This document shows positions 5,931 to 33,193 of a stretch of 37,485 nucleotides of DNA, piece after piece (within the stretch, counting starts at the first letter, position 1; each line of letters opens with the position of its first letter). Origin of the DNA: a virus (lineage: Duplodnaviria; Caudoviricetes); IMG/VR virus record IMGVR_UViG_3300046009_011433, positions 1 through 37,485 of that record. One strand, given 5' to 3'. The notes below the pieces were generated by a model. It was not told the DNA's origin. It saw nothing but the letters and a program-made list of their open reading frames with translations, and searched no databases. Both the position numbers and the translations under genes were made by a program.

Positions 5931-6001
5931 TGCGTATACAGGGATTTGAACCCAGACGGCCAGAATGGAAATCTGGCATGCTACCGTTACATCATATACG
6001 C
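5931..6001 (-). tRNA. tRNA-Gly(TCC)
   Basis: Reverse complement folds as a cloverleaf: GCGTATA/TATACGC acceptor, CCAGA-TTTCCAT-TCTGG anticodon arm, GGTTCAAATCC T-arm. No encoded CCA. Confidence 0.9.
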
Positions 6002-6015: not shown

Positions 6016-6210
6016 ATGAAAAAATTAAAAGAAGGCAATCTTTACAATGTTGAGCAATCCGTGACTCCCGGAACCGGAACAAATGCTACCAAAGTTGGAT
6101 TGGCTGCTTGGAACCGTGAGATGAGAAAACAGTTGATGCAAAAATTGAAGCATTATGCACCCGACCAAGTACAGAAGATAATAAAGGCTACGTTTGGGGA
6201 TAACATTTAA
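6016..6210 (+). CDS. small late hypothetical protein
   Basis: MKKLKEGNLY start is 5 nt after CTAAATA (6004-6010). The longer track ORF would overlap the tRNA. Confidence 0.6.
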   Translation: MKKLKEGNLYNVEQSVTPGTGTNATKVGLAAWNREMRKQLMQKLKHYAPDQVQKIIKATFGDNI

Positions 6211-6401
6211 ACTCCAAGCGTCTTTCTGAGTTTGATGTCTCCCTTGAAATATGAATCAAACCTTGAGACAATCTTTTCCTTCTCGGAAATCAGTTTGTTG
6301 TATTCCTTGGTGCTGGATTTGTCATTGGTTTCACAGCGCCCAATGTGCTTCATCGTCTCACCGTACTCATAAATCAAGTCTTCAAGTTCTCTGTTGTTCA
6401 T
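6207..6401 (-). CDS. hypothetical protein
   Basis: 64 aa, downstream of a sigma70-like promoter. Confidence 0.6.
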   Translation of the reverse strand: MNNRELEDLIYEYGETMKHIGRCETNDKSSTKEYNKLISEKEKIVSRFDSYFKGDIKLRKTLGV

Positions 6402-6410
6402 GGTCTAAAT

Positions 6411-6438
6411 ACTATAGCAGCGAATAGAGGTTGGTCAA
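6411..6438 (-). promoter_or_regulatory. sigma70-like promoter TTGACC-N16-TATAGT with TG extended -10
   Basis: Read on the reverse strand; abuts a plus-strand CTAAATA at 6405. Confidence 0.6.
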
Positions 6439-6445
6439 GCAATTC

Positions 6446-7030
6446 ATGAAACACCCAAATCAATCATTTATTGACAACTTTAATAGAGCAAACCGGGGAC
6501 CAGAAGGCGTTCCAACCTATCGCTATACTCAAAAATTCATAGAAAAGAAAAGAAAACAAAAGTTTGAGTATTTTGTTGAGTCTTTGAATAACCCCAAACC
6601 AAAGACCAATACTCTTGCACAAGAAATAAATCGAATCTTTTCTTATAATACTCTTTCTAAGAATACCAAAAAAACTTTGTTGGAAACCAAGCAGAGTATT
6701 GGTTCGCTGCCACAACAGTTCAATTATAATGGGTTGCTATACGCATTCAACCAAGAATTGAATATGTATGTCAATCAACATGGTCATGCAATTTCTATTG
6801 AGCAAGCCACGGCTTTCATGGAAATGGCACAACTTGAAGAAGTTGGTTCATTCTCTTCGGAATCTGATACAGATGGGGGATATCAAACGGCTCCGTCTGT
6901 GATTCCAACACCACCCGAAACACCCACAGGTCTGACAGCCTCTGATATAAATATTACAGAAGCCACCTTAACTTGGCAAGATAATTCAATAAACGAAACA
7001 GAGTTTAAGATTTATTATAGAACTGACTAA
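6446..7030 (+). CDS. putative virion anchor protein ending in a half FN3 domain (strands A-B-C)
   Basis: Shares LLE...LPQ..YNGL.Y......NQ.GH.I domain with 10619..13132; ends PTGLTASDINITEATLTWQDNSINETEFKIYYRTD*. Confidence 0.8.
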   Translation: MKHPNQSFIDNFNRANRGPEGVPTYRYTQKFIEKKRKQKFEYFVESLNNPKPKTNTLAQEINRIFSYNTLSKNTKKTLLETKQSIGSLPQQFNYNGLLYAFNQELNMYVNQHGHAISIEQATAFMEMAQLEEVGSFSSESDTDGGYQTAPSVIPTPPETPTGLTASDINITEATLTWQDNSINETEFKIYYRTD

Positions 7031-7031
7031 A

Positions 7032-9692
7032 ATGCCAGACCTAAATCCACTATTTTCAGATCAAATAATAATTGATGGTAATACTTTCATATTAGGCGCA
7101 ACTACAGCGGGATCTGTTAGCATGGGAACTACAAGTTCTGAACTTACTGGTTTGTCATCAGGAACTACTTATTATTTTGCAGTTGTGGCTTTTAGCGATA
7201 TTTCTGGTTATTCGGGTTGGGTTGGTCCAGTTGCGGTATTCACATATCCAAGATTGCCAATTTATGCATTTAGTTGGTCCTGGCCTCATAGCACCCGTGG
7301 TGTGTATGACACTCTTTATTATTCTTCTGGAATAACTCAAAATCTTTTAGCTAGTTCAAATGATTTATTGAACTCTACTGTTTGGAATCAACCAGGTTCC
7401 GGTTATTCATTGTATCATGCAGTTTCAATTACACCACCAGCGGGTATGTCGGCTTTCGGTTTGTCTTTGACTGGTCCTACTGGATATCGTTTTCAACTTC
7501 AAAATCAAGGATATGTTTCTGTTACGGCTGGTGTTACATACACTTATTCTTATTACATAAATGCAACTGAAGGAATTACTCAAAATCTAGATGCAAGAAT
7601 ATCTCATTATTTTGATGGAAATGTCACTGGCACGTTTGCTCCGTTCTTGTATCAGATTGAACCGGAACTAAGAAATAATATTAGTTCTGGAGAATCTACT
7701 TTAACTTTGGGTTTTGCTGGAGCATCTGGGTGGACGAGAGTTCTTGTAAATGTTGTACCAAAAATCAATCAAAAATTAAAAATAAGTTCTTTCCAGATAA
7801 ATGGAACTTTTAATTCTATTCCAGATAAACCATATTATTTTGCAGGATTTAATTTTAATCAAGGTTCTACTCCATCAAATTTTGTCTCTACACCCATAAT
7901 ACCAGAATTTGATTCAAATGTATATGGGAATACCGGAACAACGATTATTTACGATGGAAGTGAATCTTCTTTTTCAAATTTTGGATCTTCTTATGGTTTA
8001 ACTTATATCTATCCTTTAGTTTTTAGTTATGAGTATTTACCTGGAAATAAACATTGGCTATCACCAAATAATATCATTCAATGGCAAAATTCAAATTCCT
8101 TGAAACGATACGCAAGAATTTTAAAAGGATTTTCTCTCGGAACCAGAGCATGTTATCCATCATTTATGAGTGATCGTTGGTTGTGGAATTTGCAAAGTGA
8201 TTTGTTGTCAATGGGATCTTCTGGTGGACAAGTTGGAAATTATTTTAATCAAGATGGAGAAAGTATAAATTACAGTCAGTGCACGAATGAAAACCATTGG
8301 GGTCTATGGATTACTGGTGGTATATGTTTAGGTCAACAAATTTGGAATCAAGTAATGCTTGATTTTACAAATTTAGATTCTTATTGTGACTATTTTATTC
8401 ATAACCAAGAAAATGTAAATGACGCATTTTCTGTGTTCAGCATATATCCATGTTCTGGAAATACGGCAATCCAAAGAACTATTCTAAATGACCCAAGATA
8501 CAAAGAATCTTTCTTTGGTTTAACATCCTGGCAAGATTTTATGTCTTCGTTTGGTGGATGTGGTTATTTAATTCAAGATACGGTATATGATGAAACAGAT
8601 TCGTACATGAGTTGGGAATCGTATGGTGCTGCTTTAATAAGAAAGTCTTTGGATTTAATGGTGATGGGTTATGATTCTTATGATGGTGGAAGATTTAAAA
8701 ATGCAATACAAACAGACGCTTATAGTTATTTTGGGATTGGTGCCATCGATGAAGGATCACCTTCTACATTCGGAATGCATCCGATAAATTACAAATATGT
8801 AATGGGAAATGCTCCATCTCCAACTTTTTATGGTTGGTATTCTTTTGGATGGGAAAATTCAGTATTATATGGTTCAAATTATGATAAAATAAAATTTAAA
8901 GCTTCAGGAGATCCATTATCTGCTGGAGAAACACGACCAAACCCATTCCCAATAGCATGGCTACCATTCTTGTTTGACATGCAAACATTGAGATTGGCAA
9001 AACGAGGAAGTCCAAAACTTCCAATGGTTCCAGTCATTCCGTCACTTCGATTCTACGGTCAACCAAATGCATTACCGGGACAGGATACTTCTTCTACACA
9101 AAGAACCTTTGCTCAAGGTGTCACAGCGGAACGACCAGTTGCTTATTATGCTGATGTAAATGTTGGATACAATCCTGTTGCTGGAATTACATTTACTGTG
9201 GCTGGTGGTAATAGTGCTTATTTCTATGAATTAATAAGACACGCATGTTTATCAGGATCCAGAGCATTTAATTGGTGGAATCCATCGGCATTCTTCAATG
9301 CAGAACTTTGGGGTGCATGTTATGGAACAAACTTTAAACCGATGGACTCTTTGACTATACAATCTGGTATCAATTATGCAAGAGACTATACATTGAGTGG
9401 CGATACAACTTACATATATGACATGCAATATTTGAATAATGTTCTTTCTGATTGTAATTCAAAATTGGGCGGATATACAATAAGAACAAATGTTCTTGAC
9501 AGAATAAATTATACGACAAATTATGTTGTCAGTGGCGCTCCTGGGCCTACTGGAGGTTCGTGGTGGAGAGTTACAATTAAACCAGGAACAACATTTATAG
9601 TGCAAGGAATTACTCTTCCAACAGTAAGTGGAGAAATTGGTTCTTGGTTCTATACATCTGGAAATACTTTAACAGGAATCACACAATTATAA
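7032..9692 (+). CDS. large virion-surface protein: N-terminal half FN3, lectin-like beta-sandwich, conserved AGGNSAYFYELIRH core
   Basis: 886 aa; GLSSGTTYYFAVVAF near the N-terminus; paralogous blocks with 14014 and 17741. Confidence 0.8.
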   Translation: MPDLNPLFSDQIIIDGNTFILGATTAGSVSMGTTSSELTGLSSGTTYYFAVVAFSDISGYSGWVGPVAVFTYPRLPIYAFSWSWPHSTRGVYDTLYYSSGITQNLLASSNDLLNSTVWNQPGSGYSLYHAVSITPPAGMSAFGLSLTGPTGYRFQLQNQGYVSVTAGVTYTYSYYINATEGITQNLDARISHYFDGNVTGTFAPFLYQIEPELRNNISSGESTLTLGFAGASGWTRVLVNVVPKINQKLKISSFQINGTFNSIPDKPYYFAGFNFNQGSTPSNFVSTPIIPEFDSNVYGNTGTTIIYDGSESSFSNFGSSYGLTYIYPLVFSYEYLPGNKHWLSPNNIIQWQNSNSLKRYARILKGFSLGTRACYPSFMSDRWLWNLQSDLLSMGSSGGQVGNYFNQDGESINYSQCTNENHWGLWITGGICLGQQIWNQVMLDFTNLDSYCDYFIHNQENVNDAFSVFSIYPCSGNTAIQRTILNDPRYKESFFGLTSWQDFMSSFGGCGYLIQDTVYDETDSYMSWESYGAALIRKSLDLMVMGYDSYDGGRFKNAIQTDAYSYFGIGAIDEGSPSTFGMHPINYKYVMGNAPSPTFYGWYSFGWENSVLYGSNYDKIKFKASGDPLSAGETRPNPFPIAWLPFLFDMQTLRLAKRGSPKLPMVPVIPSLRFYGQPNALPGQDTSSTQRTFAQGVTAERPVAYYADVNVGYNPVAGITFTVAGGNSAYFYELIRHACLSGSRAFNWWNPSAFFNAELWGACYGTNFKPMDSLTIQSGINYARDYTLSGDTTYIYDMQYLNNVLSDCNSKLGGYTIRTNVLDRINYTTNYVVSGAPGPTGGSWWRVTIKPGTTFIVQGITLPTVSGEIGSWFYTSGNTLTGITQL

Positions 9693-9704
9693 AATGTATG
9701 AACA

Positions 9705-10589
9705 ATGAGTATATTCTTTTCCGGAAATACCTATAACTTTGGTGCAACAGTAGCCGCAAAAATTGGAACTGGAACCACAAGTTATGTATTTTCTGGATTA
9801 AGTTCGGGTTCAGCATATGGTTTTATAATTTGGGCTTTTAATAGTTTTGGTTCATCTCCTATTGTTGGGCCAACTATATTCTTAACCAATGAAATTCCAA
9901 CACCGGAAGATTTTTCAGTTTCTCAGTTTGGTGAAAATGCTGTAATTTTAAATTGGGTTTATGATCCAGAAACAGTAATTGATGGATTTGAAATTTTAAG
10001 AGCAAATAGTCCTCTCATGGGCTTGACATTTGTTGCAAGTGATGTCAGAGGATATATTGATTCTGGTCTTACCAAAGGAATCACATATACATATAGTATT
10101 CAAGCATCATATTCAGGTAATTCTTCAAAACCACCACCTTCGAAATCAAAAACGCTTCCACCATCTCCTGGAGTTGTAGAACCTTCTGAACCGATTGGCT
10201 TTACATTAGCAATTAGTGAAATAAATCTCAATACCGTAATATTAAATTGGAACAAGGGTGAATTGGGCCTTTATGGTGAACCAGATGGATATCAAATTTA
10301 TCGTTCATTGACAGATTCCAACTATAAATTAACTGCTAGTACAACAGGGGCTACAACATATTCGGATTCTTCTCTCATATCTGGATCTACTTACTTCTAT
10401 AAGATTCAATCATACAATTCTGGTGGCCCTTCTTCATTGACAGGTCCTAAATTCATAAGAATTATAGGATATCCACCAAATACTCCTACTGGTTTGACTA
10501 CGCAAAATATAGATGAAAATTCCACTATACTACAATGGAATGATAACTCTATAAATGAAAACTTATTCAAAATTTACTATAGAACTTGA
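9705..10589 (+). CDS. FN3 repeat protein: half FN3 + 2 complete FN3 + complementary half FN3
   Basis: Begins GNTYNFGATV...GLSSGSAYGFIIWAFN; has two LNW...Y.I.R...L..G.TY.Y.IQ units; ends PTGLTTQNIDENSTILQWNDNSINENLFKIYYRT*. Confidence 0.85.
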   Translation: MSIFFSGNTYNFGATVAAKIGTGTTSYVFSGLSSGSAYGFIIWAFNSFGSSPIVGPTIFLTNEIPTPEDFSVSQFGENAVILNWVYDPETVIDGFEILRANSPLMGLTFVASDVRGYIDSGLTKGITYTYSIQASYSGNSSKPPPSKSKTLPPSPGVVEPSEPIGFTLAISEINLNTVILNWNKGELGLYGEPDGYQIYRSLTDSNYKLTASTTGATTYSDSSLISGSTYFYKIQSYNSGGPSSLTGPKFIRIIGYPPNTPTGLTTQNIDENSTILQWNDNSINENLFKIYYRT

Positions 10590-10600
10590 TTTCGAACAAA

Positions 10601-10608
10601 TATAAATA
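10601..10608 (+). promoter_or_regulatory. canonical T4 late promoter TATAAATA
   Basis: Exact match, 10 nt before ATG 10619. Confidence 0.7.
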
Positions 10609-10618
10609 GGAATAGTCC

Positions 10619-13132
10619 ATGGATCGCAATATTCTTCGCCAATATCTTTCGGGTCTCGCAGGAGCCAATAACCGTTTTCTTTTAGAGAATTCACGGTATC
10701 TTGGAAATCTTCCGCAAAACATCGTGTACAACGGATTGGTTTATACACTAAATCTCCGTGAAAATGCATTCATGAATCAATTTGGTCACAGAATTGATCC
10801 AAGTGCTGCATCTGCATTTATTACTGAAGCAAGAGCCTTTGAACAACAGAATTTGGCTATCTTGGACATTTCTTCAAGTTCTTCTGACAATAGTTCTTCA
10901 AGACCAACTCCAGAAAGTGGAGCAGTAACACCACAGAATCTTAATGCTAATCCAGATCCTAACGACACAACTACAGGTGTTATCGTTACCTTCACAATTG
11001 ATGATCCTGAAAAAGCAGATACTTTTATACTTTTCCGTGCAACAGATCCAAAGGGACCCTTTACTCAAGAAAAAGTTGATCTCAATAAGTTTACAAGAGC
11101 CTTTATTGATGAAGGTTTAACTCCTGGAACAACATATTATTATCAGGTTGCTGCTGTATTGGACGGTAAGCAAGGACCAACATCTGAGGTTGTATCCGTT
11201 ACAACTGATACTATCAAACCACCTTCAATTGGTATTACAGCACCTAGTGGATTAACTGCCACTTCAATTGTACAAAATAGAGTTGATCTTGCTTGGACTG
11301 ATAATTCCACAAATGAACTTGGATTCTATCTATATCAATCCTTGAATGGTTCATCATTTACTTTAATCGAAGGATTGGTTGCAGGAGCCACAGAAACCTC
11401 TGTAAAGGGACTTTCTCAAGACAGCAATTACTGGTATCGTGTACAAGCCTTTGCAACAGGAAGCACATCTGCATTCTCCAATACTGTTGCTTTGAGAACT
11501 CTTCCAACTCTGCCTGCTGCTCCCAGCAATCTTTCATTGTTGGTTGGTGGAACTTCACAAATTCAAGTTTCTTGGACAGACAACTCCACAAACGAACAAT
11601 TTTTCAATCTTTTCCGATCAACAGATGGGGTTTCATATCCATTCGGAATCACGCTCCCCGCAGGATCTACAACCTACTTGAACACAGGTTTGAGCGCTGG
11701 AACCACTTATTTCTACAGAGTAAATGCTGCAAATACCGGAGGAACTTCAGGATTCGCTGGTCCAGAATCTGCAACAACTCTTGGAATAACAATTGCAGCA
11801 CCAACATTGCTTTCAGCATATTCCTCGGTACCAGCAACTAAAAACTTCTTAAGATATACTGAAGGATTTACCACAGCAGTATCTTTGGCTAATGGTGGAT
11901 GGACTGCTGCATCTGGTGGATCGTCTACCACAGTAAGCATTGATAATTCTATTCTTGCACCAAATGGAACTACAGGCGCAGCACTTTTGACAGTAAATTC
12001 ACCTGTTGTAATAGGTGGCATTCATAGTATAGTCTCTGAACCCGGTATCACCGCAAATGATTACTGGAGTGGTTCAGTATGGCTCCGTGGAAAAACTGCT
12101 ACCATTGGTGGAATAAATGTTGTTGTACGAGCTGGTACTAACCAAAATGTAATTCCATCTACACTCAAAATTTTGAGTGGTCCCGGAACTGTTGTTACAA
12201 GTTCAGTTGGTGAGTCACACTGGAATGGTGTAGTAGGACTTAGCAAGACAGAATGGACAAGAGTTGCTTGGAACAATACTTCACCATGGGGTGTTACAGG
12301 ATCGGGTGGAACATACACAGATGTTCTATTGCGTTTGACTGTAAACTTCTACGATGGATCTATTCCAAGTGCAGTTACAGGGGATTCTATCTACGCTTGG
12401 GGCGCTCAATTCGAAAGAAACCCTTATCCAACAGAATATCTTGCAGCAACAGGTGGTTCGTTCTCCGAAAGACCGTTCCAAGGTCTTACTTCTCAAATAA
12501 ATCTTTATTGGCAAGATAACAGCACAGATGAAACTGGATTCTCCGTAGAGCGTTCTACAACTCTAGGTGGTGTTTATAGTGGAATCACATTACTTCCAGC
12601 TAATACCACAGTCCACAGTGATCGTGGATTGTCTGCAGGATCAACTTACTTCTATAGAGTAAGAGCCTTCAAGCCAGGTGCAACTTCAGGATTTGCAGGA
12701 CCAACATCTGCAGTCACATATCCTACTGTTCCTGCAACCCCAGCATTTACATCAATTTTAGCAGGATCTTCCTCACAAATTAATATAAATTGGACAAATG
12801 TTGCAAATGAAACTGGATATAACCTATATCGCTCATTGAATGATGTAAGTTATACTGGAATCACAACATTGGGTTCTGATGTAACTGGCTTCACCAACAG
12901 TGGTCTATCAGCAGGAACAACTTATTTCTATAAGATTGAAGCATTCAATGTGGGTGGTACTTCTGCTCTATCGGGTGCAACAAGTACAATTACCTTGCCA
13001 GCAGGAACAACACCATCTGCTCCAACAGGATTCACTGCACTTTCAGCCACAGACAGCACAGTAACTCTGCAGTGGACAGATACATCTACCAATGAAGATG
13101 GATTCCTGATTTACTACAGAGGAATAACCTGA
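10619..13132 (+). CDS. FN3 repeat virion protein: anchor domain, about 5 FN3, inserted lectin-like domain, terminal half FN3
   Basis: Repeated APSxL...WTDNSTNE.GF...GLSAGTTYFYRV; ends WTDTSTNEDGFLIYYRGIT*. Confidence 0.9.
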   Translation: MDRNILRQYLSGLAGANNRFLLENSRYLGNLPQNIVYNGLVYTLNLRENAFMNQFGHRIDPSAASAFITEARAFEQQNLAILDISSSSSDNSSSRPTPESGAVTPQNLNANPDPNDTTTGVIVTFTIDDPEKADTFILFRATDPKGPFTQEKVDLNKFTRAFIDEGLTPGTTYYYQVAAVLDGKQGPTSEVVSVTTDTIKPPSIGITAPSGLTATSIVQNRVDLAWTDNSTNELGFYLYQSLNGSSFTLIEGLVAGATETSVKGLSQDSNYWYRVQAFATGSTSAFSNTVALRTLPTLPAAPSNLSLLVGGTSQIQVSWTDNSTNEQFFNLFRSTDGVSYPFGITLPAGSTTYLNTGLSAGTTYFYRVNAANTGGTSGFAGPESATTLGITIAAPTLLSAYSSVPATKNFLRYTEGFTTAVSLANGGWTAASGGSSTTVSIDNSILAPNGTTGAALLTVNSPVVIGGIHSIVSEPGITANDYWSGSVWLRGKTATIGGINVVVRAGTNQNVIPSTLKILSGPGTVVTSSVGESHWNGVVGLSKTEWTRVAWNNTSPWGVTGSGGTYTDVLLRLTVNFYDGSIPSAVTGDSIYAWGAQFERNPYPTEYLAATGGSFSERPFQGLTSQINLYWQDNSTDETGFSVERSTTLGGVYSGITLLPANTTVHSDRGLSAGSTYFYRVRAFKPGATSGFAGPTSAVTYPTVPATPAFTSILAGSSSQININWTNVANETGYNLYRSLNDVSYTGITTLGSDVTGFTNSGLSAGTTYFYKIEAFNVGGTSALSGATSTITLPAGTTPSAPTGFTALSATDSTVTLQWTDTSTNEDGFLIYYRGIT

Positions 13133-13133
13133 A

Positions 13134-14000
13134 ATGTCTAGTGTATTTTTTAACGGGAACACATATACCTTTGGAGCCACAGTTGCCGCAAATCCGGGAA
13201 CTGGGACGACTTCACATGTATTTGGTGGATTGAGTTCTGGGTCTACATTTGGATTTATTTTAAGAGCCTTTAATGATTTTGGGTTCTCAAATTTTGTTGG
13301 TCCTTCAATAATTAAAACTTTATCGGAAACTCCAGAAGAAATTCGTCCATTGATTTCTGCATTAGAGTGGAATTCCCCATATGAACCTATTGCAACAACA
13401 ACTGTTTATGTTGATCCATATGATTTAGAGAATCAAAATTTGTTCATGTCTAGTGAGAATTTAATTCCATTTACTATTGGTGGCCCACCAATACAATACG
13501 GCTGGGAACCCGCACCACCTACAATTACACCACCTATGAGCATAACAAGTGGATTCAGTGCTCCAGATGGCTCTACAACTGCATGGCAATTTACTAGTAG
13601 TTCTGCGACAGGATGGGGATTACTAAAGAGAATGTCCCTAGACACAGGAAAAACTTATTATCTTTCGTATTATTATGATTTGTCAAGAGGAAACACTGGA
13701 ACCTTTATAGGTTTGGGAGGAATGTATTGGGAAGGTGGAATCTTACCTTCCATAAGATTCCAACCATTCCGACAAATTCTTCCTGTTGTTGGATCTATGG
13801 TCACCGGAGGATCAAACATAACACAAATTGGTTCTGCTACAGGTTGGACACGGTTTGCTTGGGAATTTAATACAATATCTGGATATTCAGATGGATCTCG
13901 TTTAGTTATGGGTATCATGAGTGTAGTAAGAGGAGCGGATTTTGGTTTAGGTACTGCAGCTAGATATTTCTGGGGACCACAATTAGAATTAGCGGAATAA
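13134..14000 (+). CDS. half FN3 + lectin-like beta-sandwich protein
   Basis: Begins GNTYTFGATV...GLSSGSTFGFILRAFN; QNLFMSSE...APDGSTTA...WTRF...WGPQLE module. Confidence 0.8.
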   Translation: MSSVFFNGNTYTFGATVAANPGTGTTSHVFGGLSSGSTFGFILRAFNDFGFSNFVGPSIIKTLSETPEEIRPLISALEWNSPYEPIATTTVYVDPYDLENQNLFMSSENLIPFTIGGPPIQYGWEPAPPTITPPMSITSGFSAPDGSTTAWQFTSSSATGWGLLKRMSLDTGKTYYLSYYYDLSRGNTGTFIGLGGMYWEGGILPSIRFQPFRQILPVVGSMVTGGSNITQIGSATGWTRFAWEFNTISGYSDGSRLVMGIMSVVRGADFGLGTAARYFWGPQLELAE

Positions 14001-14013
14001 ATAGGACTAAATT

Positions 14014-17000
14014 ATGAGCACCGGACCAACACCATATAATCCTACTATAGATAATCCTGTTTCAAGAACAGTTTCAACAAAAACTTATTACTATGATTCA
14101 TTCGGAAATACTTTATATGATGTTTCTTATCAAAATAGATTAAATTATATTGTAAGTTCTGGAAATACGTATACTGCTCCATTTTTTAGTGCAGGTTTGA
14201 ATGGAAATTATTTTGAATTGGCTGCAAGAAGTGGAATAACTTTATCAGATCCAGCCTACACAGATATTGAAATAATGAAATTGTTGCCAAAAGAAAAACG
14301 AGCAATTCAACCGTTTGCTTATAATGGTTCTCGTTTATGGTTATTTGCTGAAGACGCAACAATACTTCTTGGAAATGGTATGACTATGTTTGGTATTACG
14401 GGTGGTGCTTTTGTAAAACCAAATAGTTATTTGGGATTTTGGCCAGATTTTGGAATTTCTTATACTAGCGAATATGTTAGACAAGTAGCTGAGAGTATGT
14501 CACAGCAGGGGGCGACTTTACAATATATTATGATTGACCAAGAAGGAGAAGAAGTATATTTTAAAGATGAAAATGGAAATATTTCTTCACCTCTCGTTAA
14601 CTGTGTAACAGGAGGAACATTTTATACAAGCGGGTGGAGAGGATTATCTTCTTGGTTAGATTATTATCTTTTTGAAGGTGGTAACACATCATATAATTTT
14701 CTTGGTGATTCTGCAGAGGCATCTACAAATCGTATTGCTTGGTTGGCTGCTTGGAATCGATATAAAAATAAAGCTTTTGAACAAGCATTTTTACCTGAAT
14801 TGTTAAATTATAATTCTGATAGCGCAGTGAGCAATTATAATGACTGGATTACACTACCAAAAACAACTTATAATTCTTTTAATTATTTGGGTGAATATGC
14901 TAGCCCAGAAAGTTTAGAAAACCGTGCAATATCTGGTAATGCACAATCTCCTGTGATATATGGTTGGTTTACCAATGGACCGTTGGTAGAACAATTAAAT
15001 TACGATTTTTCTCAGGATACACCAGCCGTATCAGCTTTAGATCCCACTGTAATTTTTAACAGAACTTTTTCATATAAAAATTCACTACTTGATAAATTTT
15101 TTACTTCAGGGCCTTGGAGTAGTTTTATTTCTGTTGTTTCAGAAATGAAAGAAGCAAAAAGAAATGCTCCAAATTCACCAATAACTCCATGGATTCCTTC
15201 CGTAATGCAAGCAGGTCAATATAATTTGAACTATGGTTCAATATATAAATATGAAGCTCCGTGGCTAAAAAGTAACACGCAAATGCCAGCTGTCGCTGCA
15301 CACAATCGATGGAGATTCAGAAACATTAGTTCAGAAACAAGCGGCTTTAGTGGTCCTTTAAGTTCAACTGGAGGAATAAGAATCGTTTCTGGTACTACAT
15401 CTGCAGTAAAGTCTCTGTATTATGTATACAATGGGTTAACAAGCGGAATTACTTATGTATTTTCTTACTATGTAAATCTAGGATGTGGTTACACTGGTTT
15501 TGCAGCAGGTTTCAATAATTATACCAAAAATAATTATGGCATACCGACTGGAATAACATATTATCAATCATTACCATCTGCCACAGGTCCATTTTATAAC
15601 ACTGGTCCAATATATTATCCACCGGGTACATCGGATTGGACAAAGGTTGAATTTAAATTTAATCTTCCTTCTCCAGATCCCAAAAATGATGATATCTTTA
15701 ATCCAACTTTAGAGGTTTCAGTTATTGATGAATCCACTACAAGTGGATTGACATTGACAATGTTTATTGCAGACCCATCATTTGAAATAGAATCTTCACC
15801 ATCAAATATTTCAGTTATATCAATGACTCCAATTGTATCTGAACAAAATAAAATACAAGTATCAAAATGGTCTCCATGTGGTTTTGCTGATGTAAAAATT
15901 GGTTATAATCCCAAACTTGCTCTATATCTAACAGATAGAGCGGGAAACAGTGCATATTTTTATGAAATGATTCGTCATTGTTGCTTATTGGGAACAAAGG
16001 CATTTGGTTGGTTTAATGCTTTTTCCTTCATAGATAATTCATATCCCGGTGCCATAAACATAGGATTTGCTGGACAAGATGCTTTGGGTGCGGCAAAACA
16101 AAATCTAACATTAACAAATGGTTTCACTGGTTTCTTGGATGAATATAAATTACTAAATGAAACTTTACATGATGTTCATCAAAAAATAGGAGGATTCACA
16201 CTTACTACTGCTGGTGCAACTGATAAATGGAATTGGTCTTTGCCATATTTTGCATCTGCTGCACCAGACACAAGAGGACAAACTTGGTGGTGGAGAATTA
16301 CTGCCCAAAATGGTTACACATTATATGTAAACGGAATGACTTTACCTGATGCAAATGGAAGTGTTGGAATGTGGTTTGGAACAACTGGACCAACCTTGGC
16401 TGGAGTTTCCATAACATCGACACAGCCAATTCCTCCATCAGAACCCACTGGAATTACTGCTGTCAGAGACTTTAATTTCCTACAAATGAATTCTTTGGCA
16501 GATTTGACCGGAAATTCTCTTTCATTCAGCAGAGGTGGAACAGCATCCTATATTGGTCCAAGTGGTTATTTGTTATTCGCTGGATCAAATGTACCAAGAT
16601 TCCATTATGATCCAGTTACTTTGACAAAGCGTGGATTATTAATAGAAGCATCTGTTGCCAATCAATTAAACTGGAGTGAGTCTTTTGCATCAACTGGTGG
16701 TATACAAAACAACTGGATTTATACAAATCTTGTAGGTGTTTCTGGAAATACATCCCCATCCTTGGATCTTAGCGCAATAAGATTTACAGCAACTGGGGCA
16801 AATGCAACTCTAATTTCTTCAAGTGCAGTTGGAAACACAACAAATCCAAAAATTTTAAGTTTCTGGTGCAAAGGTATAACAGGAACAGAAAGTCTTTCTT
16901 ATACAGTAGATGGTGGTACTTTATGGAATAGTGTTTCAAAACTAAGTGGTTCTTGGAACCGAGTTTATTTTGGACCAATTTTTAATGGAAATTGCTATTT

Positions 17001-17718
17001 TGGTCATCGGGTTGGATTTAGATTGGGGAATACAAATGATTCAGTAATGATTTGGGGTGCACAACTTGAAAATAGTAAAACGGGAACAAATCCAAATGAT
17101 TTGGTTAGAACAGAAAACCCAGACATGTATGGATTCAATCAGGAAACATCGTACATAAAAACAGAATCTACTACTGTAACAAGATCTGCAGATTCATTGG
17201 CATTTGTTGGTGCCACTACTTGGATTGGTGCTACATATGGAACTCTTTTAATTGAAGAAGAAAATATGAACTTTAATTCTGGTGGTCGGTTTACCATATT
17301 TGGATTTACTGCTGCCTCAAGTACAATACCTGGAAATCATTGGATTGGTCCAAGAACTGATTCTTTCTTATATCAATCAGGAGATGGAAGTGTTAACCGT
17401 TCAAATGGTTTTAGTTGGTGTTATAAAAATAGATATCATGCAAGGGATACACAACACAAATGGTTCTTCTCTTGGTCTCCTTATGGTTATAAATGGGGAG
17501 CAAACAGTAGAATAAAAAGTATTGCTCAAAATATAACACCTCTTACAATAATCTCATCTTTTAATTTTCCAAATGAAGGAACTATGGTTCGTGTTAGATA
17601 TTTTGATAAAGTTTTTAGTAACGATATCACCAGACAATTTGCTTTAGGTGGTGTAACACAAATTGGTTGGCTAAACAATGGTGATGGTATAGTTCCACCT
17701 TCTACTGATTATCCATGA
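14014..17718 (+). CDS. large virion-surface protein with AGNSAYFYEMIRH core and C-terminal head-spike/fibre-like domain
   Basis: 1234 aa; C-terminal FSRGGTASY...PRFHYDP...GLLIEAS..N...WGAQLE...TSYIKT...VTRSAD is a recurrent phage fibre module. Confidence 0.8.
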   Translation: MSTGPTPYNPTIDNPVSRTVSTKTYYYDSFGNTLYDVSYQNRLNYIVSSGNTYTAPFFSAGLNGNYFELAARSGITLSDPAYTDIEIMKLLPKEKRAIQPFAYNGSRLWLFAEDATILLGNGMTMFGITGGAFVKPNSYLGFWPDFGISYTSEYVRQVAESMSQQGATLQYIMIDQEGEEVYFKDENGNISSPLVNCVTGGTFYTSGWRGLSSWLDYYLFEGGNTSYNFLGDSAEASTNRIAWLAAWNRYKNKAFEQAFLPELLNYNSDSAVSNYNDWITLPKTTYNSFNYLGEYASPESLENRAISGNAQSPVIYGWFTNGPLVEQLNYDFSQDTPAVSALDPTVIFNRTFSYKNSLLDKFFTSGPWSSFISVVSEMKEAKRNAPNSPITPWIPSVMQAGQYNLNYGSIYKYEAPWLKSNTQMPAVAAHNRWRFRNISSETSGFSGPLSSTGGIRIVSGTTSAVKSLYYVYNGLTSGITYVFSYYVNLGCGYTGFAAGFNNYTKNNYGIPTGITYYQSLPSATGPFYNTGPIYYPPGTSDWTKVEFKFNLPSPDPKNDDIFNPTLEVSVIDESTTSGLTLTMFIADPSFEIESSPSNISVISMTPIVSEQNKIQVSKWSPCGFADVKIGYNPKLALYLTDRAGNSAYFYEMIRHCCLLGTKAFGWFNAFSFIDNSYPGAINIGFAGQDALGAAKQNLTLTNGFTGFLDEYKLLNETLHDVHQKIGGFTLTTAGATDKWNWSLPYFASAAPDTRGQTWWWRITAQNGYTLYVNGMTLPDANGSVGMWFGTTGPTLAGVSITSTQPIPPSEPTGITAVRDFNFLQMNSLADLTGNSLSFSRGGTASYIGPSGYLLFAGSNVPRFHYDPVTLTKRGLLIEASVANQLNWSESFASTGGIQNNWIYTNLVGVSGNTSPSLDLSAIRFTATGANATLISSSAVGNTTNPKILSFWCKGITGTESLSYTVDGGTLWNSVSKLSGSWNRVYFGPIFNGNCYFGHRVGFRLGNTNDSVMIWGAQLENSKTGTNPNDLVRTENPDMYGFNQETSYIKTESTTVTRSADSLAFVGATTWIGATYGTLLIEEENMNFNSGGRFTIFGFTAASSTIPGNHWIGPRTDSFLYQSGDGSVNRSNGFSWCYKNRYHARDTQHKWFFSWSPYGYKWGANSRIKSIAQNITPLTIISSFNFPNEGTMVRVRYFDKVFSNDITRQFALGGVTQIGWLNNGDGIVPPSTDYP

Positions 17719-17726
17719 TTTAAATT

Positions 17727-17733
17727 CTAAATA
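17727..17733 (+). promoter_or_regulatory. late promoter CTAAATA
   Basis: 7 nt before ATG 17741. Confidence 0.65.
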
Positions 17734-17740
17734 ACTTAGA

Positions 17741-20700
17741 ATGTCCTCTATAATATTTGAAGGCAACACCTACACTTTTGGAGCCACAGTCTCGGCAAAT
17801 TCGGGAACTGGGACAACTTCATATATCTTCACATCTCTAACACCCGGAAGTACATATGGATTCATAATATGGGCCTTTAATGGATTTGGATCTTCATCTA
17901 TTACAGGCCCGGTTACAAAAATAACTCTTTCAGATGAAACAAGACCAGTAATTTATATATTTTCAGAATATTGGCCCTCCACTTATGTTACTGGTGGTTC
18001 AGAAATTATTTATTCAAATTACAGCACCGAATCTTTAACAAATTTATTAATGCCTAGTCAGGCACCAATAAAATTAATTTATGATACAATTTGGGACCAA
18101 GTAAATAATTCAAGTCTTTTTGTTTCTAAGGGAATTACGAGTCCAATAGGAGATACAACCGCGTCATTACAATGGTTAAAGCCATTTACTACTGGTGTTT
18201 CCTTTCCACAAACTCTTACTGGTAGTGACACAAAAGGATATGCCAAAACACGAATTGGAGTAACTTCTGGTTCAACTTATACATTTTCATTTTACTTAAA
18301 TTATGATTTGGGTTCTGCGCCTTTAATTCTTGGTAATTGTGCTGGATGGACCAATTCTAATCATATAAAAATGGATTGGCGTGGGGCGACATCTCCAACA
18401 GCCTTTTTCGGGACAAGTATAGCAACTACACAAATCCTTCCTGTTTCTACAAATAATTCAGGATTGTCTTTAGGTGTTGGACTAACCTCTTGGCAAAGAC
18501 TAGCATATAATCTTTATTTTCCACCGGGAATCAGTTATGCGCTTGGATATTTTTTATTAAGTGATTCTAGCGCCAGTTCTCAAATAAAAGCAACTGGTCA
18601 TACTTTTGCAATATGGGGTTTACAATTAGAAATTGGAACTGGACCATCTACTTATAGTCCAAATATTTTAGATTCATATAACTATGAAACTACTCAATCC
18701 CATGATAATTTATTTTGGAATTTCACTCCTCAACAAGGCATGACTTATATTTGGCCGCAAGTATTAACGCAAGTATATAAATTTGATGGTTCTAGGCCAA
18801 CCAAAGATAATGCTGTAGAACTTGGTGGTGTTTTTTGGAATAATTATGATATAAATCAAGATCAGGTAATGTCTAATAATGTTAAATTATTAAAAGGTTT
18901 ACCCTCTAATAGAAAATCAATTCGTCCTTATGGTTATGATATATTTCCTTTTGATTCTTTTGTAGAGGATCGTTTGGGTACTGGCACAACAGGAATGAAA
19001 GGAACATGGAAATTTTATTCAAATAATTTTTCACTTACTGGCACAACTGGATATTATCCAAGTTTATGGCCTGTTGCTGGAATAAGTGCAGGATTATCTG
19101 CGTTTACTCAATTTTTTAGTTATCTTGGAAATACATTATCAGAATTAAATTATATTCTTTCAGATAGAGAAGGTGTAGTATTTGATTTCTTGCCTGTTGC
19201 ACCTTCTAATAATTTTGCAGTTGATCCAATTCATTTTCAAAATACAATAAAGTCTGATGCAAGATATTATCAATCTTGGTATGGGTTGTCTGCTATATCA
19301 GAAATGATTATTGAGAGTGGGATAACATTAGATTCCAACTTTACTGATTTATATTTTAGTAAAGTGGGATATGCTTGGCAAGCAATATCACATTCTTATG
19401 CAGCAAGAGCAGCAAATCAATTTTTAAAACCATCGTTGCAACAATATTATCCAAATGCATATTTTGCTGATTATGGTGAATTTTATAGTGATAAAAATTA
19501 TTTTGATGGACCGGGTACTGGACCATCTTTCTTGAGAAGAGAACCTGTAACCAATTCATCGGCACCAGTTTTATACGCTACAAATTCAGTAAATGGAATA
19601 AGTTTATGGGCTATAGATACAAGATATACTGATGAATATCAAAGATATATTCTAGATCCTGCCCAGACTAATAAATTATTAATTAGTGAAAATTATGATA
19701 TCACACCACCATGGTACAAAGGTGATGCAACTGGAATCACTACATTTAGATCTGGAACATCATTGCTTAATAAAGGAATTCAAGATCCTTTGGATACTTT
19801 TAGGTCTTATAATTTAATTGATGGTGCAACTACTAATTCATCTAGTATGTTGGACCATTATATTTCATATGATACTGGCTATGTAGGTAACAATTACAAT
19901 ATAGCTGGAAGTACATCACATACTTTATCGACTTATTTTAAATCTGGATTGACAAATGGTGCAACATGGGGTGTGATGACTTGGGTTCATGGTGGTGGTT
20001 CCAGACTTTTTGCTGGTACTGTTGTATTTGATATTAAAGGTGGAACGGTTGCTAATTCAAAAGTTGGTTTTAATCTTTCTGGGGGTTCTTATTCTTGGGG
20101 AATTACTTTAGCTGGAAACAGTTGGTATCGTTGTTGGATGAATATTCAAGGTTACACCGCATCATCTTATGAATTGAGTTTATACCTCGGGCATTCAAAT
20201 ACAGCATCACCAACGTATGAAACAACAGGAGCAGCATATCAAAGAGTAATGTATGGAAATTCGGGTGGAAGAGAATTATATATTTGGGGTTCTCAATTAG
20301 AAACTGGTGTTACAGAACCTACTGAATATTCAGCAAGAGGTGGATCTTTTTCAACTGATGCTTCTATAAATTTACCAAATGATGGTTGGCTTGCCTTTAG
20401 TACGGAGATTCAAAATTTAAGAGGAATAAAAAGAGCCAGTCCAACAACACCAATTATTCCTTGGATAGGAAATGTTTCTTGGCCCGGTGATAATTTAGTT
20501 GGACAAACTGTTACCAGACCCAATATTGGTTGGTCAGACACAAAACAAGGTTATAATCCAAAACAAGGATGTACATTTACAATCGCTGGTGGAAATTCTG
20601 CTTATTATTATGAATTTATAAGACATTTATTATTACACGGTATCCCATCAATTTCATTATGGCCCGGAACGGTATTTTCATATGAAAATTTAAGTAATCA

Positions 20701-21022
20701 AAGTTATTTTGATGCTGGATATACTACCTATATTCAAGAATATAAAGATTTAGATAGTGTCATTCATGATGTCAATGATAAAATTAAAGGATTCACATTA
20801 ACAACCGCAGAGACTTCAAGAATTGATTATTTGGCAAAATATGTTGCATCTGGTGCACCCGGACCAAAGGGTATAACTTGGTGGTGGAGAATCACTGTAG
20901 GAGTAAGTGGAAGCAGAGTTTTAGTAAATGGTATTACTTTAGATAGTTTAAATGGACCTTATGGAACTTGGATTTCCACCACAGGACCAACTTTGGCTCA
21001 TGTGCCGATAACAATTTTGTAA
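17741..21022 (+). CDS. large virion-surface protein: half FN3, two lectin-like modules, AGGNSAYYYEFIRH core
   Basis: 1093 aa; begins GNTYTFGATV...LTPGSTYGFIIWAFN; contains WGLQLE and WGSQLE modules. Confidence 0.8.
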   Translation: MSSIIFEGNTYTFGATVSANSGTGTTSYIFTSLTPGSTYGFIIWAFNGFGSSSITGPVTKITLSDETRPVIYIFSEYWPSTYVTGGSEIIYSNYSTESLTNLLMPSQAPIKLIYDTIWDQVNNSSLFVSKGITSPIGDTTASLQWLKPFTTGVSFPQTLTGSDTKGYAKTRIGVTSGSTYTFSFYLNYDLGSAPLILGNCAGWTNSNHIKMDWRGATSPTAFFGTSIATTQILPVSTNNSGLSLGVGLTSWQRLAYNLYFPPGISYALGYFLLSDSSASSQIKATGHTFAIWGLQLEIGTGPSTYSPNILDSYNYETTQSHDNLFWNFTPQQGMTYIWPQVLTQVYKFDGSRPTKDNAVELGGVFWNNYDINQDQVMSNNVKLLKGLPSNRKSIRPYGYDIFPFDSFVEDRLGTGTTGMKGTWKFYSNNFSLTGTTGYYPSLWPVAGISAGLSAFTQFFSYLGNTLSELNYILSDREGVVFDFLPVAPSNNFAVDPIHFQNTIKSDARYYQSWYGLSAISEMIIESGITLDSNFTDLYFSKVGYAWQAISHSYAARAANQFLKPSLQQYYPNAYFADYGEFYSDKNYFDGPGTGPSFLRREPVTNSSAPVLYATNSVNGISLWAIDTRYTDEYQRYILDPAQTNKLLISENYDITPPWYKGDATGITTFRSGTSLLNKGIQDPLDTFRSYNLIDGATTNSSSMLDHYISYDTGYVGNNYNIAGSTSHTLSTYFKSGLTNGATWGVMTWVHGGGSRLFAGTVVFDIKGGTVANSKVGFNLSGGSYSWGITLAGNSWYRCWMNIQGYTASSYELSLYLGHSNTASPTYETTGAAYQRVMYGNSGGRELYIWGSQLETGVTEPTEYSARGGSFSTDASINLPNDGWLAFSTEIQNLRGIKRASPTTPIIPWIGNVSWPGDNLVGQTVTRPNIGWSDTKQGYNPKQGCTFTIAGGNSAYYYEFIRHLLLHGIPSISLWPGTVFSYENLSNQSYFDAGYTTYIQEYKDLDSVIHDVNDKIKGFTLTTAETSRIDYLAKYVASGAPGPKGITWWWRITVGVSGSRVLVNGITLDSLNGPYGTWISTTGPTLAHVPITIL

Positions 21023-21033: not shown

Positions 21034-21885
21034 ATGATCGTCAAAAGAGGAAATAAGTTCGTTGTAATGGATTCCGAAGGAGAAAAAGTCCTTGGAACCC
21101 ATGAAACCAAACAACAAGCAGATAAGCAACTGACTGCTATTCATATTTCTCAAAAGAAAAGAAAATCACTCAAAGAGTTTCTTGAAGAGACTTCTCAACT
21201 CACTCTTCAATATCACGACCAACTGAATCCAAATCTTTGGGAAAACAACAAACTAAAGGAAGAAGTAAAAAATAAACTTCTTCAAATAGCCGATGTATGG
21301 GCAAAGTTTGCAAAGATTCCTTCAGAAGCCATAGAGGATGTATTGGTTGTTGGAGGAAATGCAAACTTCAACTACACACCATATTCTGACATAGACCTCC
21401 ATGTTCTTGTAGACAAGTCAAAGATTGCAGACTGCCCAGAAATACTTGATGAATACCTCAAAGACAAGAAGCAACTATGGGCACATTCACACGACATAAA
21501 GATCTACACCCATGATGTTGAGATCTATGCTCAAGACATCTCAGAGCAAGTTCCAGCCAACCAAGGTTCCTACAGCCTCACACAGAACGAATGGCTCAAG
21601 GAACCCAAACAAGAAGAAGTAAATTTGGAAGATCCTGAAATTTCATTGAAAGTAAATGAACTTATTCATAAAATTGAGGGTATGATTTCTTCCAAAGCAA
21701 GTGACGAATCTTTCACAAAATTGAAGGAAAAGTTCCGTACAATGAGATCTGCGGGCCTAAAGAAAGCAGGAGAATTTTCAGTTGAAAATTTGGTATTCAA
21801 GGAACTTCGAAATCGTGGATACTTGGATAAAGTGAATGATTACATTCTCAGCACACAAGACGAAAATCTAAGCCTTAAAAATTAA
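21034..21885 (+). CDS. phage nucleotidyltransferase (pol-beta-like fold)
   Basis: GGNANFNY...SDIDLHV...VEIY motif (G[GS]..DxD..E). Start revised to ATG 21034, 5 nt after ATAAATA. Confidence 0.75.
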   Translation: MIVKRGNKFVVMDSEGEKVLGTHETKQQADKQLTAIHISQKKRKSLKEFLEETSQLTLQYHDQLNPNLWENNKLKEEVKNKLLQIADVWAKFAKIPSEAIEDVLVVGGNANFNYTPYSDIDLHVLVDKSKIADCPEILDEYLKDKKQLWAHSHDIKIYTHDVEIYAQDISEQVPANQGSYSLTQNEWLKEPKQEEVNLEDPEISLKVNELIHKIEGMISSKASDESFTKLKEKFRTMRSAGLKKAGEFSVENLVFKELRNRGYLDKVNDYILSTQDENLSLKN

Positions 21886-23373: not shown

Positions 23374-23640
23374 TTATCTCTCTACGAATGAAACCCAATC
23401 TTGATGAACTACATGGTTACCAGCGTAACCATCCTTGATCTTGCTGACATCCCACCAGATTACATCGCCAACCTGAATGTCTTCGGTGAGTTTATTACCG
23501 ATTGACTCTACCTTTGCAGGAATGATTTTTGAGGATGACTTCTCGTTGTATATGATCCCTGCTGTAGTGGTCTTTTGACCACCAATCAAAGATTTTGCGA
23601 GTATCCATTTGCCTACTGGTTTCATTTGTTTGTCTTTCAT
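23374..23640 (-). CDS. groES: GroES/Cpn10-like co-chaperonin
   Basis: MKPVGKWIL...KTTTAGII...AKVESIG...IQVGDVI matches the Cpn10 pattern. Confidence 0.75.
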   Translation of the reverse strand: MKDKQMKPVGKWILAKSLIGGQKTTTAGIIYNEKSSSKIIPAKVESIGNKLTEDIQVGDVIWWDVSKIKDGYAGNHVVHQDWVSFVER

Positions 23641-24338
23641 ATTTGAATTCCTAAAACTTTACATCGTTTTCTTATAGCATTATCTGAAACATTAAAAAGT
23701 TTTCCAATTTGTGTAAATGGTTTATTTTTTACTAATGTTTCTAATTCTTCTTTTGTTACTTCAAATTTTTTATTTCTAATACTTGAAGAACATTTTTTAC
23801 ATAGTTTTGATTTATGATGAATACGACAATTACAAGACGGACATAGATTATATTTTTTAAATTTTTTCCCAGCGTAAGTATCGGTTTGTGAATGGCAATT
23901 TGGACACAAAAATCTTAAATTGTTTATACGATTATCAGTACCATCTCCATTTATGTGATCTAAATGAAGAGATAAAGTTTTTCCATTCCATTCATTATGT
24001 AAATTACATAAAGCACATTTTTGTTCTATTAATTTATCGATCAAAATTCTTTTTCTTATTGAATTTCTTGTAAATATTGAATTTTGACAAAACATTTGAT
24101 CAAAGGGAGTTCTTGTTTTTGTAATCCATGTTTTATTTTTATTTGCACCAATTCCCAATTGAATATGACTAAAATCTATATTATCAGCTTCCAGTCTAGA
24201 TTTTAATGTTTTATAGTTTCCACCCTTATTAGATAAACCAAAATGTAATAGTATACAAGAAACAGTTGAACAATTTTTTACAATATTTTCTAAACTATCT
24301 TTTGATATTTTCCATATTGGAGAATGTTTTTTCTTCAT
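23637..24338 (-). CDS. HNH endonuclease (free-standing, homing-like)
   Basis: CALC...LHLDHINGDGTDNRINNLRFLCPNCHSQTDT motif with C-terminal zinc finger and HTH; very AT-rich. Confidence 0.9.
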   Translation of the reverse strand: MKKKHSPIWKISKDSLENIVKNCSTVSCILLHFGLSNKGGNYKTLKSRLEADNIDFSHIQLGIGANKNKTWITKTRTPFDQMFCQNSIFTRNSIRKRILIDKLIEQKCALCNLHNEWNGKTLSLHLDHINGDGTDNRINNLRFLCPNCHSQTDTYAGKKFKKYNLCPSCNCRIHHKSKLCKKCSSSIRNKKFEVTKEELETLVKNKPFTQIGKLFNVSDNAIRKRCKVLGIQI

Positions 24339-24387: not shown

Positions 24388-24458
24388 TTCCCTTGAAACG
24401 ATTCGAACGTTTACACTTAGAATCAAAGTCTAATAGGCTACCGTTACCTCACAAGGGA
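24388..24458 (-). tRNA. tRNA-Gln(TTG)
   Basis: TCCCTTG/CAAGGGA acceptor, TTAGA-CTTTGAT-TCTAA anticodon arm, AAACG-TTCGAAT-CGTTT T-arm. Confidence 0.85.
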
Positions 24459-26072: not shown

Positions 26073-26074
26073 AA

Positions 26075-26148
26075 TGATCCCTACGGGATTCGAACCCATG
26101 TTATGGCCTTGAAAGGGCCGTGTCCTAGACCAACTAGACGAAGGGACC
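26075..26148 (-). tRNA. tRNA-Glu(TTC)
   Basis: GGTCCCT/AGGGATC acceptor, GGCC-CTTTCAA-GGCC anticodon arm, GGGTTCGAATCCC T-arm. Confidence 0.9.
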
Positions 26149-26151
26149 AGT

Positions 26152-28631: not shown

Positions 28632-28637
28632 GGCCAT

Positions 28638-29739: not shown

Positions 29740-29763
29740 AATTCAAGGAAAATAAATAATATT

Positions 29764-32087: not shown

Positions 32088-32088
32088 T

Positions 32089-32550: not shown

Positions 32551-32554
32551 TCTT

Positions 32555-33187: not shown

Positions 33188-33193
33188 TTAAAC

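Follow-up and report, generated by a model that had tools for sequence, protein, structure and literature searches.

In a 37,485-base virus record (IMG/VR IMGVR_UViG_3300046009_011433), which we analysed whole and refer to as the window, with genes named by their start coordinate, we found that a fibronectin type III (FN3) domain is divided between separate genes of a seven-gene cassette (6446-21022). Three proteins end with the first part of the domain, denoted the plug, and four begin with the remainder, denoted the socket. As far as sequence can tell, the split is real and conserved, and its simplest reading is a kit of connectors that snap together, comprising anchors with several plugs, extenders, a socket that can change terminus and a joint formed by a barrel strand. 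The two halves probably refold together in trans into one domain, which would fasten cargo to anchors. That they do so and also display the cargo outside the phage head is, taken jointly, an evenly balanced proposition.

An FN3 domain is cut at one loop in separate genes

The first-pass annotation of the window had reported that 6446, 9705 and 10619 end right after FN3 strands A-B-C. The open reading frames (ORFs) and termini were as claimed, with plugs at amino acids (aa) 156-194, 257-294 and 798-837, respectively. We also confirmed its report that 7032, 9705, 13134 and 17741 start with the FN3 remainder, strands C'-E-F-G; the socket lies at aa 10-73 of 7032 and at about aa 1-63 of the other three. 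On a reference profile built from 250 intact FN3 units of unrelated proteins, the window plugs span positions 1-39 and the sockets 43-93. Aligned to this profile with hhalign, the plug covered 1-41 (probability 99.0) and the socket 36-94 (probability 93.2), so that the two jointly covered the whole FN3 domain with every strand present and a slight overlap. Alignment of an intact unit to FN3con (PDB 4u3h; E 1.8e-4) placed the cut in the C-C' (CD) loop. At its N-terminus the socket has an additional short hydrophobic strand, and this overlaps the plug's final residues.

Intact FN3 units were found in the same genes, as had been noted, seven in all (two in 9705 and five in 10619). The Pfam family fn3 (PF00041) scored 62.6 bits for 9705 and 106.7 bits for 10619 at a cut-off of 25. 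No Pfam match was obtained at E 0.01 for 6446, 7032 or 13134, in which Pfam-based annotation therefore overlooks the FN3 halves. The plug-bearing genes are as follows.

6446..7030, + strand: anchor A, 194 aa; basic/acidic leader, L-L-E at aa 78-80, anchor module of ~50 aa, one plug.
6911..7030, + strand: plug of anchor A; FN3 strands A-B-C, ending at the stop codon.
9705..10589, + strand: extender, 294 aa; class II socket (classes described below) at aa 1-62, two intact FN3 units, plug at 10473-10589.
10619..13132, + strand: anchor B, 837 aa; L-L-E at aa 21-23, anchor module, five intact FN3 units (stalk), NF048003-like insert, plug at 13010-13132.

In 10619, a domain resembling carbohydrate-binding modules (CBMs) and head spikes (aa ~394-702) is apparently inserted between strands A and B of an intact FN3 unit. 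The six genes were as the annotation described them, and its six-gene system has to be enlarged by a seventh, 14014-17718, which joins through a second split.

The same cut recurs in related viral loci

A survey of relatives bore out the annotation's expectation of the same split: both halves, cut at the same place, were present in 8 of 8 viral loci, six of them distinct (L003 repeats L002, and L005 repeats L004). We scored 7993 candidate proteins of 117-2000 aa with a socket profile, and 95 of 115 proteins carried a single socket domain of at least 40 bits, four of the 95 being the window's own. With this profile, which was built from N-terminal sockets, all 95 strong sockets lay in the first 20 residues; none was internal and none was fused to a first half. 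In the remaining 20, which are multi-FN3 proteins with intact units, no single domain scored above 27.5 bits. On the other side of the split, 54 of 68 anchor-module proteins end in plugs (46 in one, seven in two and one in three) and 14 have none. Among 120 intact multi-FN3 controls, by comparison, a first half stood at the C-terminus in only two, one of them labelled partial. Tandem plugs with no socket between them were found in 8 of the 68 anchors and were also seen in L007, L025 and L026. Within classes, uncorrected ratios of nonsynonymous to synonymous polymorphism (pN/pS) were 0.23-0.40 for 12 plugs and 0.25-0.33 for 14 sockets, which points to purifying selection on both halves.

Two relatives carry the halves in other arrangements. 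L032 has a plug-ending anchor and, after it, a protein of 447 aa that bears its socket (31 bits) at the C-terminus behind a proline linker and has no FN3 first half in cis. In L026 (342-665), a protein of 107 aa consists of a socket and then a plug only, a natural circular permutant of FN3, which may close on itself or chain head to tail. The roles that had been assigned to these genes, of anchor, extender and tip, are backed by the tandem plugs, the C-terminal socket, the 107-aa protein and the lack of any fused form.

Unannotated domains of ~380 aa with a GDS(S)G motif were seen at L032:10360-11703, L006:8672-9979, L007:8543-9967 and L025:4032-5465, and bear a C-terminal socket or one or two plugs without an anchor module. 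The L032-type and L007-type domains align poorly with each other (24%). A protease label for them was dropped, as it came only from the GDS(S)G motif and searches of Pfam, PHROGs and the PDB gave no support. No anchor-type gene was seen in the L006 and L007 cassettes.

Beyond these loci, a single peptide pattern found no socket relative in genome contigs (0 of 30 candidates), and tblastn of 6446 and 17741 against 50,697 phage records gave no match. A plug search with longer proteins and a socket-profile search of 1.84 billion representatives were both dominated by giant intact multi-FN3 proteins; those from the plug search were reused as the controls above. In the ESM Atlas, 6446 had a top score of 0.78, and aa 1-95 of 10619 gave no usable match.

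The split is unlikely to come from error, recoding or splicing

Sequencing error or gene decay could in principle produce truncated domains, and one related contig, L008, does have many frameshifts elsewhere. The annotation had considered this unlikely, and it is now refuted: the same cut occurs in dozens of diverged proteins under purifying selection, and at each of the three plug stops, contigs assembled from other runs read across with no insertions or deletions. The bridging contigs showed no differences at 7030/7032 (X6), 10589 (X5) and 13132/13134 (X5), and a diverged strain (X9) bridged 13132/13134 with 26 substitutions and no gaps.

Translational recoding (frameshifting, readthrough or hopping) might instead fuse plug and socket genes, given that 7030/7032 and 13132/13134 are each 1 nt apart and that no stop interrupts the +1 frame over the 13 codons leading up to the start of 7032. 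The 12 adjacent junctions nevertheless have gaps of -1 (three), +1 (four), +5 (two), +12, +15 and +24 nt, that is, in all three frames, and the +24 gap contains three more in-frame stops. The sockets of 9705 and 17741 follow plug-less genes, and the plug of 9705 precedes a socket-less gene. Recoding would also leave the tandem plugs and the C-terminal socket unexplained. We consider it largely refuted and, like error or decay, very unlikely, because the junctions occupy all three frames and one relative has its socket at the C-terminus.

A further possibility, that RNA or protein splicing or DNA rearrangement joins plug and socket exons combinatorially, appears no more credible. Socket starts are 66-77% alike in DNA, which could support recombination. 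The junctions share no conserved sequence, a scan of 30 window proteins turned up neither an intein nor a recombinase family, the DNA contigs of 7 runs contain no plug-to-socket joint, and none of the 95 socket proteins is fused. Tandem plugs, a movable socket and a socket-plus-plug protein are instead what is expected of a connector that works at the level of the protein.

Probable refolding in trans and possible pairing classes

In the proposed mechanism, FN3 halves carried by separate late proteins would join interchangeable cargo proteins to anchors on the virion, with plug and socket binding 1:1 and the intact FN3 spacers of 10619 and 9705 setting the reach. The halves might instead not pair, each having its own partner or forming plug-plug or socket-socket beta sheets, with co-occurrence reflecting shared ancestry. 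An AlphaFold2 model of a double-plug anchor gave the plug strands a predicted local distance difference test (pLDDT) score of ~80 without a socket, although its predicted template modelling (pTM) score was only 0.24, and the extra strand at the socket start, by overlapping the plug end, also speaks for this alternative. On the other hand, core residues of a single domain are retained in both halves, which tile that domain and co-occur in 8 of 8 loci, and the L032 socket, at the other terminus, still follows a plug gene. In favour of pairing, the lone socket in the model of 17741 is also poorly modelled, with a pLDDT of 33-53 against a chain mean of 75. We therefore regard non-pairing as improbable.

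We constructed trees of sockets and plugs. The sockets fell into two well-supported clades, class I (7032-type) and class II (9705/13134/17741-type). In the plug tree, in which 1 of 17 branches was starred, anchor B plugs grouped together (support 92/90) and there was little resolution among the other plugs. Where an N-terminal socket comes after an anchor A plug, it is of class I in all four tree loci; after anchor B plugs it is of class II in 3 of 3 loci. The extender 9705 has a class II socket, yet its plug resembles that of anchor A. For free mixing of three plugs with four sockets, as the first-pass annotation had pictured, we found no support: the two socket clades track the upstream plug type. 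This tracking suggests that pairing may be selective by class. By sequence class, the plug of 10619 would take 9705, 13134 or 17741, and the plugs of 6446 and 9705 would take 7032.

Cargo proteins and a second split

The 95 socket proteins comprised 39 full tips, 46 adaptors, four extenders and six others. The cargo genes of the window are as follows.

7032..9692, + strand: full tip, 886 aa; class I socket at aa 10-73, barrel first strand, sugar-binding-like insert, glycosidase-like barrel.
13134..14000, + strand: adaptor, 288 aa; class II socket at aa 1-63, predicted barrel first strand at aa 68-86, head-spike-fibre/CBM-like domain with the stop directly after it.
14014..17718, + strand: body, 1234 aa; glycosidase-like barrel without first strand, no socket, putative partner of 13134; further CBM-like and phrog_5939/NF048003 domains.
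17741..21022, + strand: full tip, 1093 aa; class II socket at aa 1-63, GH42-like TIM barrel at ~aa 66-1080 with invariant Glu477, two CBM-like inserted domains; fused counterpart of 13134+14014.

An AlphaFold2 model of 17741 was built from 68 sequences (mean pLDDT 75.4, pTM 0.72). It showed a TIM barrel like that of glycoside hydrolase (GH) family GH42 and clan GH-A, matching 4uoq (Z 15.9, root-mean-square deviation (rmsd) 4.7, 380 residues aligned) and 6y2k (Z 14.9, with the chain taken from residue 1). The second insert matched a baseplate chain of phages Pa193/E217 (Z 20.0, rmsd 2.5, 184 aligned) and also CBM4/16/61 (Z 10-11). Glu477, just past the barrel strand at 471-474, is invariant in 39 of 39 full tips, in which E66, D410, D933 and E958 are also conserved; the second catalytic glutamate of strand 7 could not be pinned down. 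No Pfam glycoside hydrolase family matched the barrel at E up to 1. The modelled barrel thus appears GH-like by fold, yet we do not class it as GH42. The tips are predicted to bind and cut sugars, and their targets would be host capsule or cell-surface glycan. The head-spike-fibre family NF048003 (cut-off 36) scored 36.8 bits for 13134, 42.1 for 14014 and 50.8 for 17741; 10619 reached 33.8 bits, under the cut-off, and 7032 gave no match. Across relatives, the family matched 43 of 68 aligned tips and adaptors.

The second split, which brings 14014 into the system, is newly described here and concerns the first strand of the glycosidase-like barrel. In the model of 17741 this strand probably corresponds to aa 72-76, right after the socket; the first CBM-like domain would be inserted downstream of this strand. 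All 46 adaptors stop at the last strand of that CBM-like domain. On a full-tip profile (39 sequences), 13134 spans 1-269 and 14014 begins at 271, and adaptor/body pairs tile the profile in 5 of 5 cases, the window pair and four in L001 and L004. A first-strand profile scored 14-27 bits in 5 of 5 adaptors and no more than 0 in 6 of 6 bodies, a comparison that is partly circular in that the profile included adaptors. Because of the tiling and these scores, it is likely that 13134 holds 14014 by completing its barrel: the socket of 13134 would take a plug, while 13134 would donate the first strand. Unlike the FN3 split, the barrel split has fused forms, such as 17741. Placing this second cut within the CBM was considered and dropped, since the model puts it in the barrel. 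If the reading holds, the partner that bears the specificity would supply the enzyme's missing strand, making the split TIM barrel a natural example of such completion.

Anchors, late promoter boxes and the probable place of display

The two anchors 6446 and 10619 have in common a module of ~50 aa, modelled in the homologue P0238 as four strands and a helix.

6677..6850, + strand: L-L-E site and anchor module of 6446; 40% identity to 10619.

In plug-less anchors the module is fused directly to cargo of 700-1600 aa, for example in the SASA esterases P0259 and P0300 and in a 1149-aa gene of L004. The split joint therefore stands where a covalent link can stand. The FN3 stalks of anchor B range from 138 to 1279 aa. 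In more distant phages (L035-L039, around 6154-13660), an N-terminal anchor module was seen on unannotated proteins of 1055-1259 aa beside DUF7207, with no split FN3.

A TAAATA box, which we take to be the T4-type late promoter motif, lies at most 60 nt upstream of 12 of 23 plus-strand genes of the window, where 0.71 would be expected and the maximum in 2000 draws was 5. Genes so preceded include four of the cassette.

6406..6411, + strand: TAAATA box, 40 nt before anchor A.
10603..10608, + strand: TAAATA box before anchor B.
13998..14003, + strand: TAAATA box before 14014.
17728..17733, + strand: TAAATA box before 17741.

An [ILVF]-x-E tripeptide occurs at a fixed place before the anchor module in 60 of 61 full-length anchors. 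It fits the L/I-X-E motif of T4 gp21, as that motif is described in PMC9026906 and PMC5694885; the former has gp21 cleaving after L/I-X-E. A pattern like the T4 capsid-targeting sequence (CTS), written post hoc, was sought in the first 60 aa: 33 of 68 anchors have it, inside the leader (aa 39-45) and not at residue 1, and it is absent from all 95 socket proteins and all 120 controls. Anchors 6446 and 10619 would join the prohead through a leader that is cut at L-L-E, leaving the module and its plug or plugs.

NF048003 cargo and the protease-like anchor site both point to the head, and they disagree on inside versus outside. We favour display outside because of the NF048003 matches, the Pa193/E217 baseplate match and the FN3 stalks of 138-1279 aa. 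Virion appendages, as the annotation proposed them, are likely to lie outside, while the prohead-protease-like site fits cargo inside the head as well. The same trans joint could be used there, with T4-style targeted core anchors whose plugs bring untagged enzymes into the prohead; on infection these would be ejected into the host envelope. Besides the anchor site and the CTS-like pattern, this alternative draws on the setting of the cassette among E/K-rich late genes, on other window genes that begin MKTFKQFLxE-like, and on the report that T4 packages and ejects beta-galactosidase fused to IPIII (PMC9026906). Against it, the cargo domains match external head-spike-fibre and baseplate sugar-binding domains, long variable FN3 stalks and hypervariable CBM-like domains make better sense outside, and folded barrels of 100-140 kDa would probably be poor cargo for ejection. 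We judge use inside the head to be rather unlikely, though it is the main competitor.

Several points weigh against trans-refolding connectors displayed on the head. Prohead-protease sites are as a rule found on proteins that face the interior of the shell (PMC9026906), and a processed anchor would have to reach the outside from there. Searches with the anchor module gave no match to a family or fold (best Z 3.2), which we do not read as a new fold. The prohead protease family of gp21, PF03420, was found in 0 of 5 related fragments, in which the controls were also silent, and the window lacks a head or tail structural gene. Sockets exceed plugs (four against three in the window, two against one in L004), and the pairing classes may reflect linkage only. 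The low pLDDT of the lone socket in the model of 17741 may stem partly from the alignment.

A free or host-surface complex resembling a cellulosome, which does not belong to the virion and acts within the infected cell or during lysis, would suit the cargo, which is glycan-active by modelled fold, and the multi-plug anchors, which recall scaffoldins. It would not account for the late boxes, the protease-like sites or the matches to virion-fibre domains, and the N-termini, inspected by eye, have no obvious signal peptide. We think it quite improbable.

If the halves bind, the FN3 cut that engineers found best has also evolved in this clade, where it serves in a reusable connector that can branch and be extended. 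The phages could then vary their glycan-recognition heads by exchanging genes or by mixing proteins during assembly, with no need to evolve attachment anew, and would offer many natural tag/catcher pairs of 40+63 residues, possibly orthogonal. A more far-reaching and speculative version, which we consider doubtful as a whole, is a programmable tag/catcher kit of orthogonal split-FN3 classes, branching anchors with 2-3 plugs, extenders, circular permutants and the barrel-strand joint. It would amount to a 'phage cellulosome' on prohead-targeted anchors, giving virions with differing glycan heads or piggy-back loading of enzymes.

Genomic setting of the cassette

The runs that best match the window DNA are lake-water metagenomes, and the record may come from one of four of these. 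The related contigs G001, G003 and G004 carry a T4-type replication module (70 of 97 ORFs scanned) with polymerase, clamp, clamp loader, SbcC/D-like, UvsX, helicase and primase families; the window itself does not contain this module. Completeness estimates for related contigs (88 kb = 42%) point to full genomes of ~150-210 kb. T4-type head and tail genes were not among 70 proteins scanned from relative fragments that are 20-42% complete. The 88-kb contig (L008/G001) has many frameshifted genes in both the cassette and core replication, probably owing to assembly errors.

The seven genes form a variable cassette flanked by conserved sequence on both sides. On the conserved right flank lies a nucleotidyltransferase (21034-21885, +; PF01909, phrog_36119) with a K-S-L-K-E-F-L-E-E motif, a late box and ~50% identity to freshwater cyanophage proteins, for example of S-CRM01. 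Further along, the genes 28690, 30641, 31183, 32089 and 33194 (28690-35359, +) have near-identical MKTFKQFLxE-like leaders, which resemble the T4 capsid-targeting sequence; among their products are a Pfam GP88 protein, a methyltransferase and an Alt-like ADP-ribosyltransferase. They are likely a cluster of head-packaged proteins. The minus strand encodes a SpoU rRNA methylase (24444-25004), a C5 DNA methyltransferase (27528-28637), an HNH endonuclease (23637-24338) and four tRNA genes: Gly (5931-6001), Gln (24388-24458), Glu (26074-26149) and Pro (26355-26428). In two relatives (L002:17494-17946, -, and L006:19123-19575, -), a 150-aa gene ends in a VPAPG motif, a hydrophobic stretch and a basic tail. 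We take this ending to recall the PEP-CTERM sorting signals of Planctomycetes/Verrucomicrobia, a possible clue to the host; it had no NCBIfam match.

Comparison with known systems

Chaperone-usher pili chain their subunits by completing each other's Ig-like fold and have base, extender and tip roles. They use a single donor strand together with a chaperone and an usher, whereas here the split is a near-even 3+4 strands; no chaperone or usher gene was found among 30 window proteins scanned from this contig, which is a fragment. Ig-like extensions of phage capsid and tail proteins are added by frameshift. In contrast to such Ig-like/FN3 extensions, the halves here show no constant frame offset (12 junctions) and are not always collinear or adjacent.

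The capsid-targeting propeptides of T4 and gp21 are alike in having an L/I-X-E site after an N-terminal leader and late expression (PMC9026906, PMC5694885). The T4 leader is 10 aa, compared with 23 or 80 aa here, and the cargo here would be recruited non-covalently. The head spike fibre Rcc01080 (NF048003) of the gene transfer agent RcGTA is described as binding host capsule polysaccharide from the head (PMC7296036), and its domain family is also in the tips here. That fibre docks by an N-terminal Leu-Gly repeat into a pentameric base. The repeat was in 0 of 7 N-termini here, and, unlike the RcGTA fibre, the proteins here add a glycosidase-like barrel.

Our literature search, which covered mainly listings and abstracts and few subscription journals, returned no description of a natural ABC|C'EFG FN3 split in phages. 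Fold complementation itself is known. A monobody engineered with a cut in the CD loop regains its fold when the two peptides are mixed 1:1, with a Tm of ~45 versus 78 C, and the paper calls this cut the most efficient one for complementation (PMC11666773, which cites Dutta et al. 2005). The FN3 fold and the cut loop are the same as here; the engineered protein is man-made from human fibronectin, whereas the split described here is natural, under selection and has a socket with an extra N-terminal strand.

The annotation knew of no phage precedent, but the Lactococcus phage Tuc2009 provides a related one, in which a 25-residue C-terminal hairpin of BppU completes the titin-like domain 2 of the CBM protein BppA (PMC4742702). 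There, a C-terminal beta element of one virion protein completes the sandwich of an accessory sugar-binding protein; by the architecture of their sequences, the proteins studied here may do likewise. Tuc2009 has a two-strand hairpin, one fixed pair, a siphophage baseplate tripod and an acceptor at the C-terminus. The phages described here are T4-like and have a three-strand half of ~40 aa, paralogous plugs and sockets, 1-3 plugs per anchor, extenders, and sockets at either terminus. The system would thus work like known fold complementation while falling outside the BppU/BppA type, with three strands donated in place of a hairpin.

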